DNA of 64,000 nucleotides from a phage. The DNA lies in sequence record PQ724393.1; one strand, written 5' to 3'. Numbering within the stretch: the stretch's first letter is position 1; every line of letters starts with the position of its first letter. This document shows, in pieces, positions 41,885-57,298 of this stretch. The notes under the pieces were generated by a model. That model saw only the letters and a program-made list of their open reading frames with translations. It searched no databases and was not told the origin of the DNA. The translations under genes and the position numbers were made by a program.

Positions 41885-42499
41885 TCAGTAAGAAAGAACG
41901 GAAAGATTCCAAATGGTGTAATTATTCCATTTAGGATTTCTCTCAATAGAGTCTACGCGCAGCGTAGTTCCCGCAGGGAACATCATCTCATCTTCATCAT
42001 TGATTAATTGTAAGTTTGCTACACGGGTAGATTCAGGAAATGCACCTGGGAACTCTTCAGGGGGTGCAGCACATAACATTTTAAAGATTTCTTCCTGATA
42101 ATTGTATACAAATGGGGCATCATTAATACAAAAGATATTAAATGTTCCATAGAAGTTATAAGATGCAAAATTCCTTGCCACGTTGAAGTCTTTAGAGAAG
42201 CTCATTACTCGGTCGAATTCAATTACGGCACCTACACACATTGTGGACTCTAGGTACTTCATAGTCTTTTTAGATATACCGCGATAGAGCTTATCAGGCA
42301 CTACAGAAGTCAGGTTCTTACGGATGATTTTGTTCAGAGTTTCCTGGATACAGTCCGGTTTATTTTCCATACACTGCCAGAGGGTACTCTGTTCTAAATC
42401 AGAATACACCTCATCAATTTCTATCTGAGTATTCTCACGGAAATCATCGCATTTAGCGTTGTTGATAAATTCTGCTAATTTATGGCTTGGATATAACAT
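41885..42499 (-). CDS. modA: ADP-ribosyltransferase, ModA-like
   Basis: R-S-E ART triad: YRG, SFS, acidic DEDE motif; 204 aa. Confidence 0.55.
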   Translation of the reverse strand: MLYPSHKLAEFINNAKCDDFRENTQIEIDEVYSDLEQSTLWQCMENKPDCIQETLNKIIRKNLTSVVPDKLYRGISKKTMKYLESTMCVGAVIEFDRVMSFSKDFNVARNFASYNFYGTFNIFCINDAPFVYNYQEEIFKMLCAAPPEEFPGAFPESTRVANLQLINDEDEMMFPAGTTLRVDSIERNPKWNNYTIWNLSVLSY

Positions 42500-42524: not shown

Positions 42525-42554
42525 ATAGTACCACAAGATTCCTTGCCTGTAAAC
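42525..42554 (-). promoter_or_regulatory. T4-type early promoter (variant family)
   Basis: GTTTAC (42549-42554), TACTAT -10. Confidence 0.45.
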
Positions 42555-43126
42555 TAAAAATCCAACATTTTTAAATGAATTGTTTTGTACTCGATTTCAT
42601 ACGGGTCTCTTTTGATAGTTTCGATTGCAACAATCTCAAATCGTGATAGGCTAGAGACCATGAACTCACATTCGGTTTCGACCATGTCATAGAGGTCGAT
42701 ACGTGTCTCGTTGATTCCATTGTCTTCTACATTACCTGCAAGAACAAGGTCGATAGCATGGTTGTAGTAATCGAAAATGAATGGCGCATTTCTGAGGCTT
42801 AAAATGGTTTTGGTTCCGTATTCCCATGCACCGGCGAATTGACGGGCTTGTGAGTACTGCGTGCTAAAAGAAGTAACACGCCCAGGAGACCATTGACAAC
42901 CTACCGTAAGAAATCTTAACTGTCTTAGTTCTTCTTGGGTAATCCCACGATACAACTCTACAGGAACAGCAGAAGTCATATGCTTACGAACCAGCTTGTC
43001 GAGGTCGTAATGGAAATTAGGGTCTTCTTTAGAATTCAGACATTTCTCTAACAACGCTTGTTCAGATTTTGAGAATTTGGAATTGATTCGGTCTTGATAA
43101 AGACACATTTCTTGTTCGATGTTCAT
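42554..43126 (-). CDS. modB: ADP-ribosyltransferase, ModB-like
   Basis: R-S-E ART triad: YRG, SFS, ECE; 190 aa; paralog of adjacent modA. Confidence 0.55.
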   Translation of the reverse strand: MNIEQEMCLYQDRINSKFSKSEQALLEKCLNSKEDPNFHYDLDKLVRKHMTSAVPVELYRGITQEELRQLRFLTVGCQWSPGRVTSFSTQYSQARQFAGAWEYGTKTILSLRNAPFIFDYYNHAIDLVLAGNVEDNGINETRIDLYDMVETECEFMVSSLSRFEIVAIETIKRDPYEIEYKTIHLKMLDF

Positions 43127-45340: not shown

Positions 45341-45880
45341 TTAATAACCTCGGTCTTGACGAGCAAAGTTCTCGGCATTTTTCAGATAATACAGTTTAAA
45401 GATTTCTTCAGCAGTCAGACCAAGACCTTGGAACATATTCAGAACAAAGTGCAGAATATCAATCATTTCGAATTTAATTTCGAGCTGGTCTTCAGGAGAG
45501 AGTTCGTCAATACGACGATTACGGAATTCGGCATGTTGTGCCTTCCACGGCTTCCACACACTGGATGCGGCTTTCTCACCATTACTCATACCGCCAAGAG
45601 AAGTCAGAAGTTCACGGAATTCATCATCAATATAATCTTTCTGGTTGCGAAGCCAATCAACAACTTGACCTGCTGTAGCTAGTTCATCAGGATTGGTGTT
45701 GAATTCTGATTTTTCAGTAGCCAAACGAACCTGTAATGATTTCTGCATATCAAGCATAACCTGCAGAGGGTCTTTATCTTCGTGAATCAGAGCATTAAAA
45801 TAAGCTTCTTCAGCTTTATCAACACCTGCAATAAGTTGTGAGCATTCGTTAAAGTGTGCCATTATATTTTTCCTTTTCAA
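45341..45880 (-). CDS. 56: dCTP pyrophosphatase gp56 (MazG-like)
   Basis: 179 aa, T4 gene 56 position next to soc. Confidence 0.6.
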   Translation of the reverse strand: MKRKNIMAHFNECSQLIAGVDKAEEAYFNALIHEDKDPLQVMLDMQKSLQVRLATEKSEFNTNPDELATAGQVVDWLRNQKDYIDDEFRELLTSLGGMSNGEKAASSVWKPWKAQHAEFRNRRIDELSPEDQLEIKFEMIDILHFVLNMFQGLGLTAEEIFKLYYLKNAENFARQDRGY

Positions 45881-52485: not shown

Positions 52486-52562
52486 TATATTTTTCCATAG
52501 GCATCATTATATTTTACTCACGTTTTAAGATAGGGTAATTATATCACTTCACATTTACAGCG

Positions 52563-53456
52563 TTAAAGGACCACGTCCTCATAACTTGGCATTTCGTGCC
52601 CAGAATGGATATGGGCACCGAAATAAATGAATTCAGCCAGACCAGGATGGAATACTAAACCTGGGTTCTCATGATAAATGATATGCGGTCTTGATTTCAG
52701 AATCTGATAATACTCAACCTTACTCGGTTTGAATTTAACAATCTCTACATCAGGACGATAGTCTTCACGCTTAAATGAATCATTAGGGTTGGTGATATAA
52801 AGACGAGCACCTTCAGCCGCAGCTTGGTCTACAACTCTTTCGAATTGATAGCACTTATCCGAAATACGGAATGGATGGAAAATACCATCAATTTTAATAG
52901 GCGCTAGACCTTCAGAGTAACGCTCAATTACTGCAGGATTAATTACCTTTTGGTCTACAAAAATCTTATCAGAGGATGCACCTCGTGACACCAGGACGTC
53001 TTTCTGGCATTGATTCAGGACTGTAGTATAAAGTGAACGTTCAACTGAAGCCACATCAATATCAATGAACTCGTCGATATAATAACGAGGAACTTCAGGG
53101 TCCATTGTGATATTAAAGTTGAATTGTACAGTATGAGCACCATCATAACCTGTGATATCGGTTACCAGTCCTGAGCAATCATAGTATTCGATTAGTGAAT
53201 CGACTACAAACTCATTTTCAGACCAGAAATGTTTACGGGTTTCATAAGCATTTTCTTTATACCAAAGTGGTACGAAATTCAGTTCTGGGAATAATTCAAT
53301 GCATTCTTTGATATCGCTCGAATTTCTAGGATAAGCCAGATAATCACCTGGACGAGCACGATTTAAATGGAGTTGAAAATTGCCGTCCTTAAGGACGGCA
53401 TATTCACCTGTTTCGTAACTACGCATACTGAAAATAGGAACGATAAACAAACTCAT
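52563..53456 (-). CDS. Unrecognised protein in the T4 beta-glucosyltransferase position; candidate DNA glycosyltransferase
   Basis: 297 aa, ATGA-coupled to gene 42; no resemblance to T4 Bgt that I can recognise; possible DxD-like FIDIDV. Confidence 0.35.
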   Translation of the reverse strand: MSLFIVPIFSMRSYETGEYAVLKDGNFQLHLNRARPGDYLAYPRNSSDIKECIELFPELNFVPLWYKENAYETRKHFWSENEFVVDSLIEYYDCSGLVTDITGYDGAHTVQFNFNITMDPEVPRYYIDEFIDIDVASVERSLYTTVLNQCQKDVLVSRGASSDKIFVDQKVINPAVIERYSEGLAPIKIDGIFHPFRISDKCYQFERVVDQAAAEGARLYITNPNDSFKREDYRPDVEIVKFKPSKVEYYQILKSRPHIIYHENPGLVFHPGLAEFIYFGAHIHSGHEMPSYEDVVL

Positions 53457-54151
53457 TTCAGGAAACCTCGGACGTAGTCAAAATCACGTTCAAACACGTG
53501 TGCACTTACCATGGTGTGGGAATACGTACCTAAACCAACACCACACTGTTCAGCAATAAATGCCATCAGTTTACCCTGCAGATAGAAATCCAGCTGCATA
53601 ACAACAGCGCAGTTTTGTGAACGCATATGGGTGTGTGCATACAAACGCCCGTCACGAATATAATACGTTACCGAATCGGTGCAAGGGTATTCTAAGGATT
53701 CGTCAGAATCAAGGAGGGCTTGGTCTTGTTCTTGGAGAATCTGGAACACAACTCTTCGCGAGTTGGCCTTTTCTTTAAGCTCTTTAAGTAGGGCTGGGAG
53801 TTGGGCCGCAATTCGAGGTCCATAGAAAGTGTTGAAGTTTGCAGGCAATACGTCACTTTTCGGCTTATCAATGAACTTAGCAACATTAGGGTATTCCTTA
53901 AATGCTTCGGCAGCGTCAGTACCACCAGAAATCATAAATTTCCAAAAGGATTCGGCATATTCATAACTGATACGATTGATACGTGGGTCGGTGAATTTAT
54001 AGGTGCTGACATCCAGTACTTCTATAGAAGCAGAACCAATTTCATAACAACGTCCGATACGAGAATCAACTGCAAACTGTGGAGCTTCCAGGATTTCTTC
54101 GTTCATTTGTTTAAATGCATTTTCAAAACTAACAGCGGTAATGTGTTTCAT
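53453..54151 (-). CDS. 42: dCMP hydroxymethylase gp42 (thymidylate-synthase fold)
   Basis: 232 aa; SRRVVFQI and CTDSVTYYIRDGRLYAHTHMRSQN regions align with T4 gp42 motifs. Confidence 0.7.
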   Translation of the reverse strand: MKHITAVSFENAFKQMNEEILEAPQFAVDSRIGRCYEIGSASIEVLDVSTYKFTDPRINRISYEYAESFWKFMISGGTDAAEAFKEYPNVAKFIDKPKSDVLPANFNTFYGPRIAAQLPALLKELKEKANSRRVVFQILQEQDQALLDSDESLEYPCTDSVTYYIRDGRLYAHTHMRSQNCAVVMQLDFYLQGKLMAFIAEQCGVGLGTYSHTMVSAHVFERDFDYVRGFLK

Positions 54152-54684
54152 TTATTCACCTTATTTTCAATATATTCGTTCAGACGTTTTAATTCTACCA
54201 TATCAACATTAAGCAAATTATTATGGCCGTCATGATTTAAGATTTTAAACACGTTTTCAAAACATGTTTCGTATTGCTGGATAGTTAGGTTGAACTCATC
54301 TTTGGTTAATTTAATAAGGTCATCTTCGAAGTCTTCGTCTAATGGGTTGCGAGTTAAAATAACTTCGATAACGTTAAATTCAGATTTAAACCCTTTCCAA
54401 TCTTCCAGTTCTACATAAGGGTCCATTTCACCACGAAGGAATCCCGAGTAAACAATATTACTAGGATACCCACGGTCTAAGATGTAGACAAAATTAGGGT
54501 CTAAAAACTTATACAGAGTTTCAACTAAAGCCTTGTCATTATCAGTCCCTAATGAAATGCATTTGCCATTAATCTTTTTAGGGAAATCAATAAGACGATA
54601 TTTCTTATCAGATAAAAGTGATTCAATTAAAGTAGACTTCCCGGAATTATCCGGGCCGTCGATAACAATGATTTTTGGTTTCAC
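54148..54684 (-). CDS. Thymidylate-kinase-like P-loop kinase
   Basis: Walker A IIVIDGPDNSGKST; TMPK-like DRG...SNIVYSG region; ATGA-coupled both sides. Confidence 0.6.
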   Translation of the reverse strand: MKPKIIVIDGPDNSGKSTLIESLLSDKKYRLIDFPKKINGKCISLGTDNDKALVETLYKFLDPNFVYILDRGYPSNIVYSGFLRGEMDPYVELEDWKGFKSEFNVIEVILTRNPLDEDFEDDLIKLTKDEFNLTIQQYETCFENVFKILNHDGHNNLLNVDMVELKRLNEYIENKVNK

Positions 54685-55079
54685 GGATGATATGCCTTAT
54701 AACTATCAAGAGTTCCTTCACGAACCAATTCTTTAAAGTGGTCTGGACGGATTGCTCGGTCATCGATGATAAAAGTATAACTCGGCTTGTGTGTAAGCAA
54801 ATTGTGATATTTCAATCCAATTTTTTCAAGGTTCTTAACCAATGCAGGAACTACTTCAACCAAGATTCGACCTGGGCCACATGAAGTCATGCCACGGGCA
54901 GTGAATAATGTAATCTCGTACCCTTCATCATAAAGCTTATTAATCATGGACACCATTTCGGTGTCCGGTTTAAAGTTCTCATAATCACGGTCATGGTTCC
55001 AAATCGTGATTGTGTTATCGATATCAAAACATAAATGTGGCTTATTTTCTACTCGATGCGACATTAAATTTTCTTCCAT
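54681..55079 (-). CDS. Small HAD-superfamily phosphatase
   Basis: HAD motif I FDIDNTIT, motif II LFTAR, Lys in THKP, motif IV FIIDD. Confidence 0.6.
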   Translation of the reverse strand: MEENLMSHRVENKPHLCFDIDNTITIWNHDRDYENFKPDTEMVSMINKLYDEGYEITLFTARGMTSCGPGRILVEVVPALVKNLEKIGLKYHNLLTHKPSYTFIIDDRAIRPDHFKELVREGTLDSYKAYHP

Positions 55080-56767
55080 TGTTTGTGGAGTTCAGTAGAA
55101 CCTGTAGGTTTATATTTTACACCAGTTTCCTGGTCAAGCAAAACCCACTTATCAGGACAACGAGTAATAATTTGAGCCGTGATAGGGTCACGAACTTCAT
55201 CGACAAATTCACCAGTAATAAGCTTACGCTTACGAGGATGCCGCTTCAGCAGCACACTCAGTTGGTACAAACCGTTATAATAAGCACCCAGAGCTTTCAG
55301 AGGGTTATTCTTAAAGTAACCTGCCAGAGCCATCCAAATAACAGCAATCCAGAGCTTGTGCTTAAATGTGCACATAGGAATATCGTCTAAAGGCATAACC
55401 TTTTCAATATCAACGAATACACGAGTTCCATTACGAGTTAATCCACCCCATAGAGGGTCTGAGTTAAATTTGTCATAGCCATCGATAGAATAAAGCACCT
55501 TAGCTTCATCATAAATCGCAGGGCCTTTAGAACTATTACCGAAATAACCACGTGGGTCGATGATTTTAATATCACCTTCGTCCGACAGCATAATATTACT
55601 GTAGTGCGGGTCGCCATGAATAAGTTGGTACGGCTCTTTATGTTCAGACAGAATTTCTAGTGCGTGGCGGAGAAGTTTTTCAGGGTCGCCTACTTTGAAA
55701 TCGTTAACATGGGTAATGCCTTGTGGAGCAAAGCCTTCAATCAATCCAGCAATAGAAGCATTACGAATAAGGACCTTGTCCAATACTTCTTTCTTAACAT
55801 CAGAATACCATTGCTCATCGGACGGATTATCGATAGTTCCACCAAATGAACGTAATGCACTAATGACCTTATAAACCATGAGGACTTTAGTTTCTTTAGA
55901 CATAAACCGGTAGGCATCTGCCATGGTGCGACCAAAGATACGTTCCATTTTAATGAATTCGCCTGGAGCAAAGTCTACAATGCTCGGAACAAATTCAGAA
56001 TCAATAGAATTATACCAATTGATTTCTTTAGATTGGATTTCTTTACCTAATTCGTTGGTAGGTACTTTAATAGCCAGATTCTCAGTGAACTCTAATTTAT
56101 TAAATTCACGGTTAATTTCAGAATCTTCATGGGCCCTAGCCAGTTTCAATTTGTCACCGACATCAACCACAAAGTCCAGCTTACGTTCAGTCAAATGGAC
56201 CATCGAATCCAGGTTGTCTGCAAGGTCTTCGCCATAATTAGAACGGTCGAAACCTGTCCAATTAGCCACCTGATACAAACCAACCACACCACCGCCAGTA
56301 CCAATTTCACGCAAGTACGGTTCTTCAAATGTAAAACGACAGTCGGTCCCATAGGTATAACAGTAGTCGTTATCCCACTCAACTTTATGACCTTCAGGAA
56401 TAATATCACACCAGTTAAACAAGACATTATGCCCGATGATATCTTCGGCAATGCAATCGATAGCATGAGCTGAACCGTTGGCCACATCTACGTTACGAAT
56501 AGTGAATTTAGGCTTATCACTGGTAATCATGTTAATGGATTTAATGTAACCCTTAACGAGGTCATTAAATTTGCTGTGAATAACCAGAATAATTTCATCT
56601 GATTGGTTACTATACAAATCATACAAATGTTTTAGTACTGTATGCTGTTTGTAGTTAACCAATACCTTCGGGATTTCGTTAGTAATTGGATACAACCGTG
56701 AGCCAAGACCCGCGCCTAAAATAACAACCTTTTTCATTATCTGTTCCTCAAGTGAATGTAGGTACAT
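55064..56767 (-). CDS. Bifunctional sugar-1-phosphate nucleotidyltransferase / APH-like sugar kinase (start may be at the internal MKKVV)
   Basis: N-terminal RmlA-like ILGAGLGSRLYPITNEIPK; C-terminal kinase Brenner-type motif LIHGDPHYSNIM and IIDPRG. Confidence 0.65.
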   Translation of the reverse strand: MYLHSLEEQIMKKVVILGAGLGSRLYPITNEIPKVLVNYKQHTVLKHLYDLYSNQSDEIILVIHSKFNDLVKGYIKSINMITSDKPKFTIRNVDVANGSAHAIDCIAEDIIGHNVLFNWCDIIPEGHKVEWDNDYCYTYGTDCRFTFEEPYLREIGTGGGVVGLYQVANWTGFDRSNYGEDLADNLDSMVHLTERKLDFVVDVGDKLKLARAHEDSEINREFNKLEFTENLAIKVPTNELGKEIQSKEINWYNSIDSEFVPSIVDFAPGEFIKMERIFGRTMADAYRFMSKETKVLMVYKVISALRSFGGTIDNPSDEQWYSDVKKEVLDKVLIRNASIAGLIEGFAPQGITHVNDFKVGDPEKLLRHALEILSEHKEPYQLIHGDPHYSNIMLSDEGDIKIIDPRGYFGNSSKGPAIYDEAKVLYSIDGYDKFNSDPLWGGLTRNGTRVFVDIEKVMPLDDIPMCTFKHKLWIAVIWMALAGYFKNNPLKALGAYYNGLYQLSVLLKRHPRKRKLITGEFVDEVRDPITAQIITRCPDKWVLLDQETGVKYKPTGSTELHKQWKKI

Positions 56768-56797
56768 TATACACTATTTTTAATAAATTGGTATTGC

Positions 56798-57298
56798 TTA
56801 AATCTTATCTTTACCGATTTCAATACACCGTTCTATTGCCGCCGGTACTTTGGTCTTGAGCTTATTGATTTGTTTCTTATAATCACGGGCTTTATCGAAG
56901 CTCTCGGTTTCGAGCATTTCGTAATAACGAGCCTCGTGGATGGAAATCTGTAGATTGATATGGTTTACGCACATCGCATACAGTTTCTGCTTTTTGTACA
57001 AATCATCTTGACGCTTCATTTCTGCCTGGTGTTTGGCTAGTACCGCTTCACGCTTAGACTCTTGTTCACGTTGGAATTCGATTTCCCTTTGAGCATATTT
57101 TGCACAGTTATTACCGCATTGATTATTAGCTCGGGTATACACAAGCCCAGAACCAGCACGGAATTTCATTTCACCGTCATATTGTTTCTGTTCAGCTGCG
57201 ATACGAGCTTTACCAACTTCATCAGCCGAAACTGCATCGCCATATTGGACCGCGCAACCTGATAGGAGCATACTCATTGCGATAATTAACTTTTTCAT
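56798..57298 (-). CDS. Putative lipoprotein with coiled-coil region
   Basis: Signal peptide with lipobox LLSGC; charged helical region. Confidence 0.5.
   Translation of the reverse strand: MKKLIIAMSMLLSGCAVQYGDAVSADEVGKARIAAEQKQYDGEMKFRAGSGLVYTRANNQCGNNCAKYAQREIEFQREQESKREAVLAKHQAEMKRQDDLYKKQKLYAMCVNHINLQISIHEARYYEMLETESFDKARDYKKQINKLKTKVPAAIERCIEIGKDKI

Follow-up and report, generated by a model that had tools for sequence, protein, structure and literature searches.

In phage T4 the interval between uvsX and the DNA polymerase gene 43 has the order uvsX-segA-bgt-42-imm-imm.1-43, and DNA cytosine is handled by a glucosyl-5-hydroxymethylcytosine (hmC) system comprising gp42, alpha-gt and beta-gt. 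For the Mosigvirus RB69, arabinosyl-hmC was reported by Thomas et al. (2018), but the modification was re-determined by nuclear magnetic resonance (NMR) and mass spectrometry (MS) as an arabosyl group ether-linked to 5-hydroxycytosine, and the 2018 assignment was called erroneous. The enzymes RB69 gp48 and DLP3 gp80 make 5-hydroxy-dCMP, take 18O from O2 and bind flavin mononucleotide, and RB69 gp48 yields 5-hydroxy-deoxycytidine (5hodC) in vivo with incorporation from 18O2 (Lee et al., Nucleic Acids Research 2026, PMC13326640). In the same study Dhakaviruses were named among the genera with syntenic clusters and predicted to be 5hodC producers; for JS98, no glucosyltransferase genes were reported (Petrov et al. 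2010). Here we describe a five-gene cassette at positions 52563-56767 of a 64,000-nucleotide stretch of a phage sequence record (PQ724393.1), hereafter the window. Its source group is Dhakavirus: the 4.5-kb cassette region shows 96% nucleotide identity to JS10, JS98, CLB_P2 and dhaeg, with at least 80% of it spanned in 52 phage records.

The cassette very probably serves to put 5-O-arabinosyl-5-hydroxycytosine in the place of cytosine in the DNA of the phage, as judged from the similarity of its proteins to characterised enzymes. A first-pass annotation, made from the letters of the window and a list of its open reading frames (ORFs), had proposed a cassette for a non-glucose cytosine hypermodification in the slot where T4 has bgt-42-imm; both this proposal and the positional comparison with T4 are supported. 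All five ORFs were confirmed on the minus strand (55064-56767, 54681-55079, 54148-54684, 53453-54151 and 52563-53456), with uvsX downstream and, upstream, a 166-aa gene, imm (Pfam Imm_superinfect, E 5e-18) and the DNA polymerase gene 43. Pfam and PDB searches bore out the calls of a nucleotidyltransferase/kinase fusion (NTP_transferase and APH), a small HAD protein and a 232-aa member of the thymidylate synthase superfamily, while the presumed nature of the base and the role of one kinase had to be revised.

The base depends on the 232-aa protein (53453-54151), which had been taken for gp42, the dCMP hydroxymethylase. Its Pfam match, Thymidylat_synt, is generic, whereas against the PDB it matches 9iqu, 9iqc and 9ir2 at E 1e-125 and the T4 dCMP hydroxymethylase 1b49 at E 3e-4; the sequence of 9iqu is exactly that of a phage HY126 protein. 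Identity is 80% to RB69 gp48 and 25% to T4 gp42. In an alignment of the window protein with ThyA (identical in sequence to PDB 1aob), T4 gp42 and RB69 gp48, the catalytic cysteine is kept (Cys157, corresponding to C146 of ThyA), and the window protein carries Glu154 (L143E), Asn180 (D169N) and Asp188 (N177D); at ThyA position 169 T4 gp42 keeps the aspartate whereas the window protein has asparagine. The diagnostic feature is asparagine at the position of E. coli ThyA residue 169, as nine of nine further D169N enzymes gave 5hodC (Lee et al. 2026, PMC13326640). From this residue and the identity to proven hydroxylases, the protein is a predicted 5-hydroxy-dCMP synthase, i.e., a flavin-dependent hydroxylase in the thymidylate synthase superfamily, not a gp42-type hydroxymethylase, and the resulting base is therefore predicted to be 5-hydroxycytosine, not hmC. 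In a complete Dhakavirus genome the cassette gene is the sole match to T4 gp42 (24.5% identity), the sole other ThyA homolog (47.6% identity to ThyA) is a thymidylate-synthase-like gene, and no beta-gt homolog was found. The combination of asparagine at ThyA-169 with the lack of a second gp42-like gene and of beta-gt in the complete genome, where alpha-gt was not searched for directly, does not correspond to a T4-type glucosyl-hmC system.

The glycosyltransferase gene lies immediately beside the synthase gene. Its 297-aa product (52563-53456), unrecognised in the first-pass annotation, gave no sequence match in Pfam, NCBIfam or PDB. The structure check that the annotation had suggested was run on it, and an AlphaFold model built from a 52-sequence alignment (pLDDT 95.5, pTM 0.90) retrieved in Foldseek UDP-sugar-binding GT-B proteins, including MshA (3c4q), so that the model lets us assign the protein confidently as a GT-B (GT4-like) glycosyltransferase. 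RB69 gp46:47 ("arabinosyltransferase 1") has the same top fold matches (Lee et al. 2026, PMC13326640). The 297-aa protein shows identities of 66-67% to the Mosigvirus and HY126 orthologs, 68% to the one in Marfavirus and 63% to the one in Serratia LC53. Its orthologs RB69 gp46:47 and DLP3 gp79 have been proposed to act as the first DNA arabinosyltransferase. Homologs of this protein, and likewise of the nucleotidyltransferase/kinase fusion, are held by about 350-370 phage genomes, a spread which argues that the cassette is not a chance assembly.

Two proteins would supply the sugar donor. The fusion protein (557 aa, 55064-56737) resembles AfhE of HY126, with a sugar-1-phosphate nucleotidyltransferase at the N-terminus and an APH-like sugar kinase at the C-terminus. 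Both domains exceed their Pfam cut-offs (NTP_transferase 34 bits against 21.2, APH 26.2 bits against 23.2), and their motifs are intact: GAGLGSRL at residue 8 (followed by PK), HGDPHYSN (HGDxxxxN) at 374 and IDPRG at 393. It is 44% identical to RB69 gp53, 41% to gp52 and, over the full length, 42.5% to HY126 AfhE (XAN60479), and the search against the HY126 locus gave E 4e-132; in a PDB sequence search it found only weak nucleotidyltransferase matches. The domain architecture is thus that of AfhE, and the substrate is assigned from sequence. The small HAD phosphatase (54681-55064, 127 aa, or 132 aa from 55079) is AfhF-like and a predicted arabinose-1,5-bisphosphate 5-phosphatase. It has the DxDxT motif, with DIDNT, TARG, HKP and IDD present, matches PDB 9iqw at E 2.8e-54, and is 62% identical to RB69 gp51 and 62.9% to the HY126 homolog; its match to NCBIfam TIGR01689 (capsule biosynthesis phosphatase, E 6e-15) falls under the cut-off of that family. 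According to He et al. (Nature Chemical Biology 2026), as relayed by Lee et al. (2026, PMC13326640), AfhE converts arabinose-5-phosphate to arabinose-1,5-bisphosphate, AfhF takes one phosphate off the 1,5-bisphosphate and AfhE then forms UDP-arabinofuranose. This agrees with the first-pass proposal that the phage makes its own NDP-pentose by the logic of kinase, phosphatase and nucleotidyltransferase; the pentose is probably arabinose. The suggested link to RB69-type phages was also correct. These genes had earlier been singled out by Thomas et al. (2018), who flagged the RB69 homologs and named gp43 of the Dhakavirus IME08 among the homologs of the fusion protein.

Profile libraries (Pfam, NCBIfam and PHROGs) return only generic or misleading names for the cassette proteins ("thymidylate synthase", "phosphoheptose isomerase", "capsule biosynthesis phosphatase"), return none for the 297-aa protein, and on their own would have supported the gp42 reading. 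Public GenBank/RefSeq labels are inconsistent and in many cases wrong: "phosphoheptose isomerase" or "capsule biosynthesis protein" for the HAD protein, "dCMP hydroxymethylase" or "thymidylate synthase" for the hydroxylase, and "RNA polymerase binding protein" or "hypothetical" for the glycosyltransferase.

The fifth protein, a thymidylate-kinase-fold P-loop nucleoside monophosphate kinase (54148-54684, 178 aa, GTG start), is 38% identical to its RB69/HY126 counterpart, and its motifs GPDNSGKS, DRG..SN..Y and DDLIK are unchanged across 50 homologs. The first-pass annotation had placed it in the sugar pathway, but we infer, by analogy, that it probably has a nucleotide role, with 5-hydroxy-dCMP as the likely substrate. 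Two observations lead to this view. Lee et al. (2026) list the trio of synthase homolog, glycosyltransferase and kinase in the galactose-using Rhizobium phage RL38J1 (their Table 1), and two jumbo-phage-like metagenomic contigs of 340 kb (L008:3739-6546) and 201 kb (L010:3729-6507) hold a four-gene run of a Flavodoxin_2-family protein, a thymidylate synthase homolog, a homolog of the first glycosyltransferase (GT1) and a distantly homologous thymidylate-kinase-like kinase, with no sugar-activation or sugar-nucleotide genes adjacent to the run in either contig. On these contigs the synthase homolog is 55% identical to the window protein and keeps the D169N-type MRSQN, and the GT1 homolog is 38% identical to its window counterpart. 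The flavodoxin-like neighbour may be a dedicated flavin reductase of the hydroxylase, which would fit with the flavin dependence of that enzyme. In Lee et al. (2026, PMC13326640) the thymidylate-kinase-like protein is only termed a "nucleotide kinase".

Taken together, these assignments suggest the following route. The thymidylate synthase homolog would hydroxylate dCMP at C5 with flavin and O2, giving 5-hydroxy-dCMP, as shown for its 80%-identical orthologs; a gp1-type deoxynucleoside monophosphate (dNMP) kinase, perhaps with the thymidylate-kinase-like kinase of the cassette taking this part, would carry the product towards the triphosphate, from which the phage polymerase would incorporate the 5-hydroxycytosine nucleotide into DNA. 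In the sugar branch, the C-terminal APH-like kinase of the fusion would phosphorylate D-arabinose-5-phosphate at C1, the HAD phosphatase would take off the 5-phosphate, and the N-terminal nucleotidyltransferase would join arabinofuranose-1-phosphate to UTP to give UDP-arabinofuranose; these steps are shown for AfhE and AfhF of HY126 and are extended to the window from identities of 42% and 63%. The GT-B protein (52563-53456), of modelled fold, would finally put arabinose on the 5-hydroxyl. E. coli makes arabinose-5-phosphate through KdsD and GutQ. As the phage has no isomerase, arabinose-5-phosphate would come from host KdsD or GutQ, a supply inferred from established E. coli biochemistry and from Thomas et al. 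(2018). With one glycosyltransferase only, the product is probably mono-arabinosylated, and we predict, by analogy with Thanatos, that it is mono-arabinosyl-5-hydroxycytosine made from host arabinose-5-phosphate; Thanatos, with a single arabinosyltransferase, has mono-arabinosylated DNA.

The gene content is reduced compared with the RB69 cluster. When searched against the window by tblastn, the arabinose-5-phosphate isomerase (SIS domain; RB69 gp55, DLP3 gp83) went unmatched (best E 3.0), as did the U32-like protein and the second arabinosyltransferase (GT2), and for none of the three was a match found at E<=1 in the complete genome of Dhakavirus CLBP2 (171.8 kb), in which all five cassette proteins occur once each at 98-100% identity. 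In database-wide tblastn searches GT1 homologs were found in 353 phage records, the isomerase in 276 and GT2 in 212. No Dhakavirus was seen among 40 rows evenly sampled from the 276 isomerase records, nor among the matches listed for GT2 (RB69 gp3, DLP3 gp76/77), whose 212 records are either of the Mosigvirus type (at least 95% identity) or from Acinetobacter phages (below 60%). The isomerase is present in the RB69 and HY126 clusters and missing from those of Dhakavirus, Klebsiella Marfavirus and Providencia PSTCR6; because the last two lack it as well, it appears to be an accessory and not a defining part of the cluster. A 199-aa ORF of PSTCR6 considered as a diverged isomerase was rejected, as it gave no tblastn match. 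Likewise, additional arabinosyltransferases, which serve for the second and third sugar, are not required for membership in the cluster for arabinosylated 5-hydroxycytosine (5ara-hC), given that Thanatos has a single one. The Dhakavirus cassette is the most stripped-down version among the clusters examined.

The fusion protein itself falls into two deep clades. The window sequence (55064-56737) is 81% identical to that of Klebsiella Marfavirus and 72% to that of Providencia PSTCR6 (clade B), and 42-46% identical to the clade A sequences listed, which come from Mosigvirus (HY126 included), RB69, Serratia LC53, Acinetobacter, Edwardsiella and other phages. This split (compared at the window and at loci L005, L006 and L007) tracks the presence or absence of a phage isomerase and is not seen in the other cassette proteins. 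It might indicate that the clade B phages run a distinct pathway, which starts from a different host sugar phosphate and ends in 5-hydroxycytosine with a non-arabinose pentose, but we regard this as unlikely. In a weaker version, the clade B phages might depend entirely on the host enzymes KdsD and GutQ, which make precursors of the lipopolysaccharide (LPS) sugar Kdo; if true, such a dependence would link the protection of phage DNA to the LPS metabolism of the host.

Other explanations of the cassette differ in the base, in the sugar, or in whether DNA is involved at all. The arabinosyl-hmC model of the first-pass annotation and of the 2018 report holds that the thymidylate synthase homolog is a gp42-type dCMP hydroxymethylase and that the sugar sits on hmC. 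It draws on the generic Pfam match, on the many GenBank records that label the gene dCMP hydroxymethylase, on the ara-hmC which Thomas et al. (2018) reported for RB69, and on L143E and N177D, which are common to T4 gp42; yet the protein is far closer to proven hydroxylases (80%) than to T4 gp42 (25%), the diagnostic position has asparagine and not aspartate, and the RB69 compound on which the model leaned has since been re-determined by NMR and MS as a 5-hydroxycytosine ether, so that we consider this model very improbable. Still less credible, to the point of being almost negligible, is the view that the sugar genes serve a surface, capsule, LPS or choline-type pathway without a link to DNA and merely stand beside the synthase homolog. 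The nearest non-phage matches are indeed CTP:phosphocholine cytidylyltransferase (1jyk) and proteins of the 6-deoxy-heptose pathway, and both the TIGR01689 match and the database names "capsule biosynthesis protein" and "phosphoheptose isomerase" point in that direction, but these matches are weak (E 1e-4 to 1e-3) or under curated cut-offs, the genes appear translationally coupled to those of the synthase homolog and glycosyltransferase within the replication gene block, the same set is syntenic in other Straboviridae with arabinosylated DNA, and the HY126 orthologs were shown, according to the account in Lee et al., to make UDP-arabinose for DNA modification.

The sugar leaves somewhat more room for doubt. 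The clade B fusion could activate another entry substrate, for example ribose-5-phosphate, so that the same 5-hydroxycytosine would carry a non-arabinose glycoside; the 42-46% identity to clade A enzymes, against 72-81% to Marfavirus and PSTCR6 whose clusters both lack the isomerase, is compatible with this, as are the lack of an isomerase in the whole Dhakavirus genome and the galactose and glucose carried by 5-hydroxycytosine in RL38J1. However, the glycosyltransferase and the HAD phosphatase, which must both recognise the sugar, are 63-67% identical to their RB69/HY126 orthologs, the Marfavirus glycosyltransferase (68%) is no nearer to that of the window than the Mosigvirus ones are (66-67%), both fusion domains keep their catalytic motifs, and loss of the isomerase needs no change of sugar in an enterobacterial host that makes arabinose-5-phosphate via KdsD and GutQ. 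A different sugar thus seems improbable to us, and arabinosylated 5-hydroxycytosine remains the preferred product. Several points nevertheless weigh against it. For no phage, RB69 included, has the first arabinosyltransferase been reconstituted as an active enzyme, and single glycosyltransferases combined with UDP-arabinose and 5-hydroxycytosine DNA were inactive in the work of Lee et al. (2026, PMC13326640), where it was also found that the gp1-type dNMP kinase of RB69 already phosphorylates 5hodCMP. The fusion shares only 41-44% identity with the enzymes characterised so far and stands in a separate clade, so its substrate is an extrapolation; an unrelated second glycosyltransferase could be encoded elsewhere in the genome, beyond the reach of tblastn with known glycosyltransferases; and the literature that could be searched yielded no chemical analysis of DNA from any Dhakavirus, arabinosylated 5hodC in Dhakavirus virion DNA having been predicted from synteny by Lee et al.

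The five genes are tightly packed. Overlaps of 4-16 nt had been claimed for all junctions, and three do show a 4-nt overlap (GTGA, ATGA and ATGA), while the junction between the fusion and HAD genes overlaps by 16 nt as listed, or by 1 nt (TAATG) if the HAD protein starts at Met6. These tight junctions suggest that the five genes are translationally coupled and translated as one unit. The fusion gene most likely starts at 56737 (MKKVVILGAG, 557 aa) rather than at 56767: GAGGA lies 7 nt upstream of the ATG at 56737, the shorter start is also annotated in dhaeg and RB69, and the first ATG of the ORF, at 56767, overlaps a TATAAT box. For the HAD gene the start is probably at 55064 (127 aa), matching dhaeg and RB69. 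Mechanical ORF calling was thus too long at the 5' end of two genes, by 10 codons (56737-56767) and 5 codons (55064-55079), and the public annotations of close relatives disagree at the same two ends.

The promoter that drives the cassette is less clear. As to the claim that it lies downstream of an early promoter, a T4-early-like candidate by consensus match, GTTTACA-N17-TAGTAT, occurs on the minus strand at 57603-57575, downstream of gene 43 and upstream of imm, and imm, the 166-aa gene and the cassette could all be transcribed from it; this evidence is weak, since promoter-like matches in the region were no more frequent in a consensus scan than in shuffles (17 found against 15.5 expected). 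Before the first cassette gene, a putative TATAAT box (56771-56766) and the Shine-Dalgarno sequence GAGGA (56749-56745) can be read on the minus strand (56745-56771 in all), the box having no good -35 hexamer and not being called by the consensus scan, and no MotA box of a middle promoter was seen by eye ahead of the cassette. The best promoter-like match of the region, TTAACG-17-TATAAT with an upstream TG (52538-52566, minus strand), overlaps the tail of the glycosyltransferase gene and lies shortly upstream of uvsX, which may have its own promoter there.

Between imm and the cassette lies the 166-aa ORF (56798-57298, minus strand), with a lipoprotein-type N-terminus (MKKLIIAMSMLLSGC) and a match to PHROG 1754, whose function is not known. 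Homology to T4 imm.1 was considered and rejected (E 7.9), although both proteins start with a lipobox-like, lipoprotein-type signal and their genes lie at nearly the same spot. Outside the cassette, a candidate gp56-type dCTPase/NTP pyrophosphohydrolase (45341-45880, minus strand; PHROG 173, E 1e-44) would be expected, by the T4/RB69 paradigm (Lee et al., Table 1), to supply dCMP and remove dCTP. Two adjacent paralogous ORFs on the minus strand (41885-42499 and 42554-43126) match the RNA polymerase ADP-ribosylase group phrog_832 and are presumably modA/modB-like.

The pathway, its enzymes and its spread have already been published (Thomas 2018; Mahler 2025; He 2026; Lee 2026), and the finding is a rediscovery, in which the NDP-pentose logic and the arabinose link were derived by the first-pass annotation from raw sequence. 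Carrying this modification protects phage DNA against restriction enzymes and CRISPR nucleases, and type IV restriction enzymes, BrxU among them, in turn target it; its carriage among T4-like therapeutic phages bears on host range, phage engineering and sequencing. The question raised in 2010 for JS98-type phages, bare hmC or another modification, would be closed by inference. In addition, the five-gene version hints at a minimal gene set that may be enough, leads to the prediction that the phage relies on arabinose-5-phosphate from its host, and includes a conserved thymidylate-kinase-like kinase with a probable nucleotide role.

Compared with known systems, the cassette is closest to the Mosigvirus cluster (RB69 gp45-gp55 plus gp3; HY126 Afh), with which it shares the position between uvsX and gene 43 and five orthologs: the thymidylate synthase homolog (80%), the GT-B arabinosyltransferase 1 (66-67%), the HAD phosphatase (62-63%), the fusion (42%) and the thymidylate-kinase-like kinase (38%). 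In RB69 and HY126 the order is gp43, isomerase, small ORF, fusion, HAD, U32-like gene, small ORF, thymidylate synthase homolog, GT1, kinase, uvsX, with the second glycosyltransferase gene near rIIA. The window, in contrast, has neither the isomerase nor the U32-like gene with its small neighbour nor a second arabinosyltransferase, places the kinase between HAD phosphatase and synthase homolog instead of next to uvsX, has a fusion from a separate sequence clade, and carries imm and the 166-aa lipoprotein gene between cassette and gene 43. The clusters of Klebsiella Marfavirus (PhiKpNIH-6) and Providencia PSTCR6 share with it the order fusion, HAD, kinase, thymidylate synthase homolog, glycosyltransferase, the lack of the isomerase and the fusion clade (81% and 72%), but retain, between kinase and synthase homolog, a small ORF and a U32-like gene with 85-86% identity to RB69 gp50, of which the window has neither; no description of the DNA chemistry of PhiKpNIH-6 or PSTCR6 was found. 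The analogy with ADP-heptose synthesis by HldE/GmhB, drawn in the first-pass annotation, holds for the reaction logic (sugar phosphate to 1,n-bisphosphate to sugar-1-phosphate to NDP-sugar, with a bifunctional kinase/nucleotidyltransferase and a separate HAD phosphatase) and not for family membership, as the kinase is APH-like, the transferase is RmlA/GlmU-like, and the fusion has no Pfam match to PfkB or to the cytidylyltransferase-like CTP_transf_like. With the T4 glucosyl-hmC system, finally, the cassette shares the genomic slot and the general plan, in which a thymidylate synthase superfamily enzyme acts on dCMP ahead of replication and the sugar is attached by a GT-B enzyme. It differs in the 25% identity to gp42, in the lack of a beta-gt homolog, in a donor that would be made by the phage and not drawn from host UDP-glucose, and in a predicted hydroxylation by flavin and O2 instead of a folate-dependent hydroxymethylation, for which reason the ether link would sit directly at C5.

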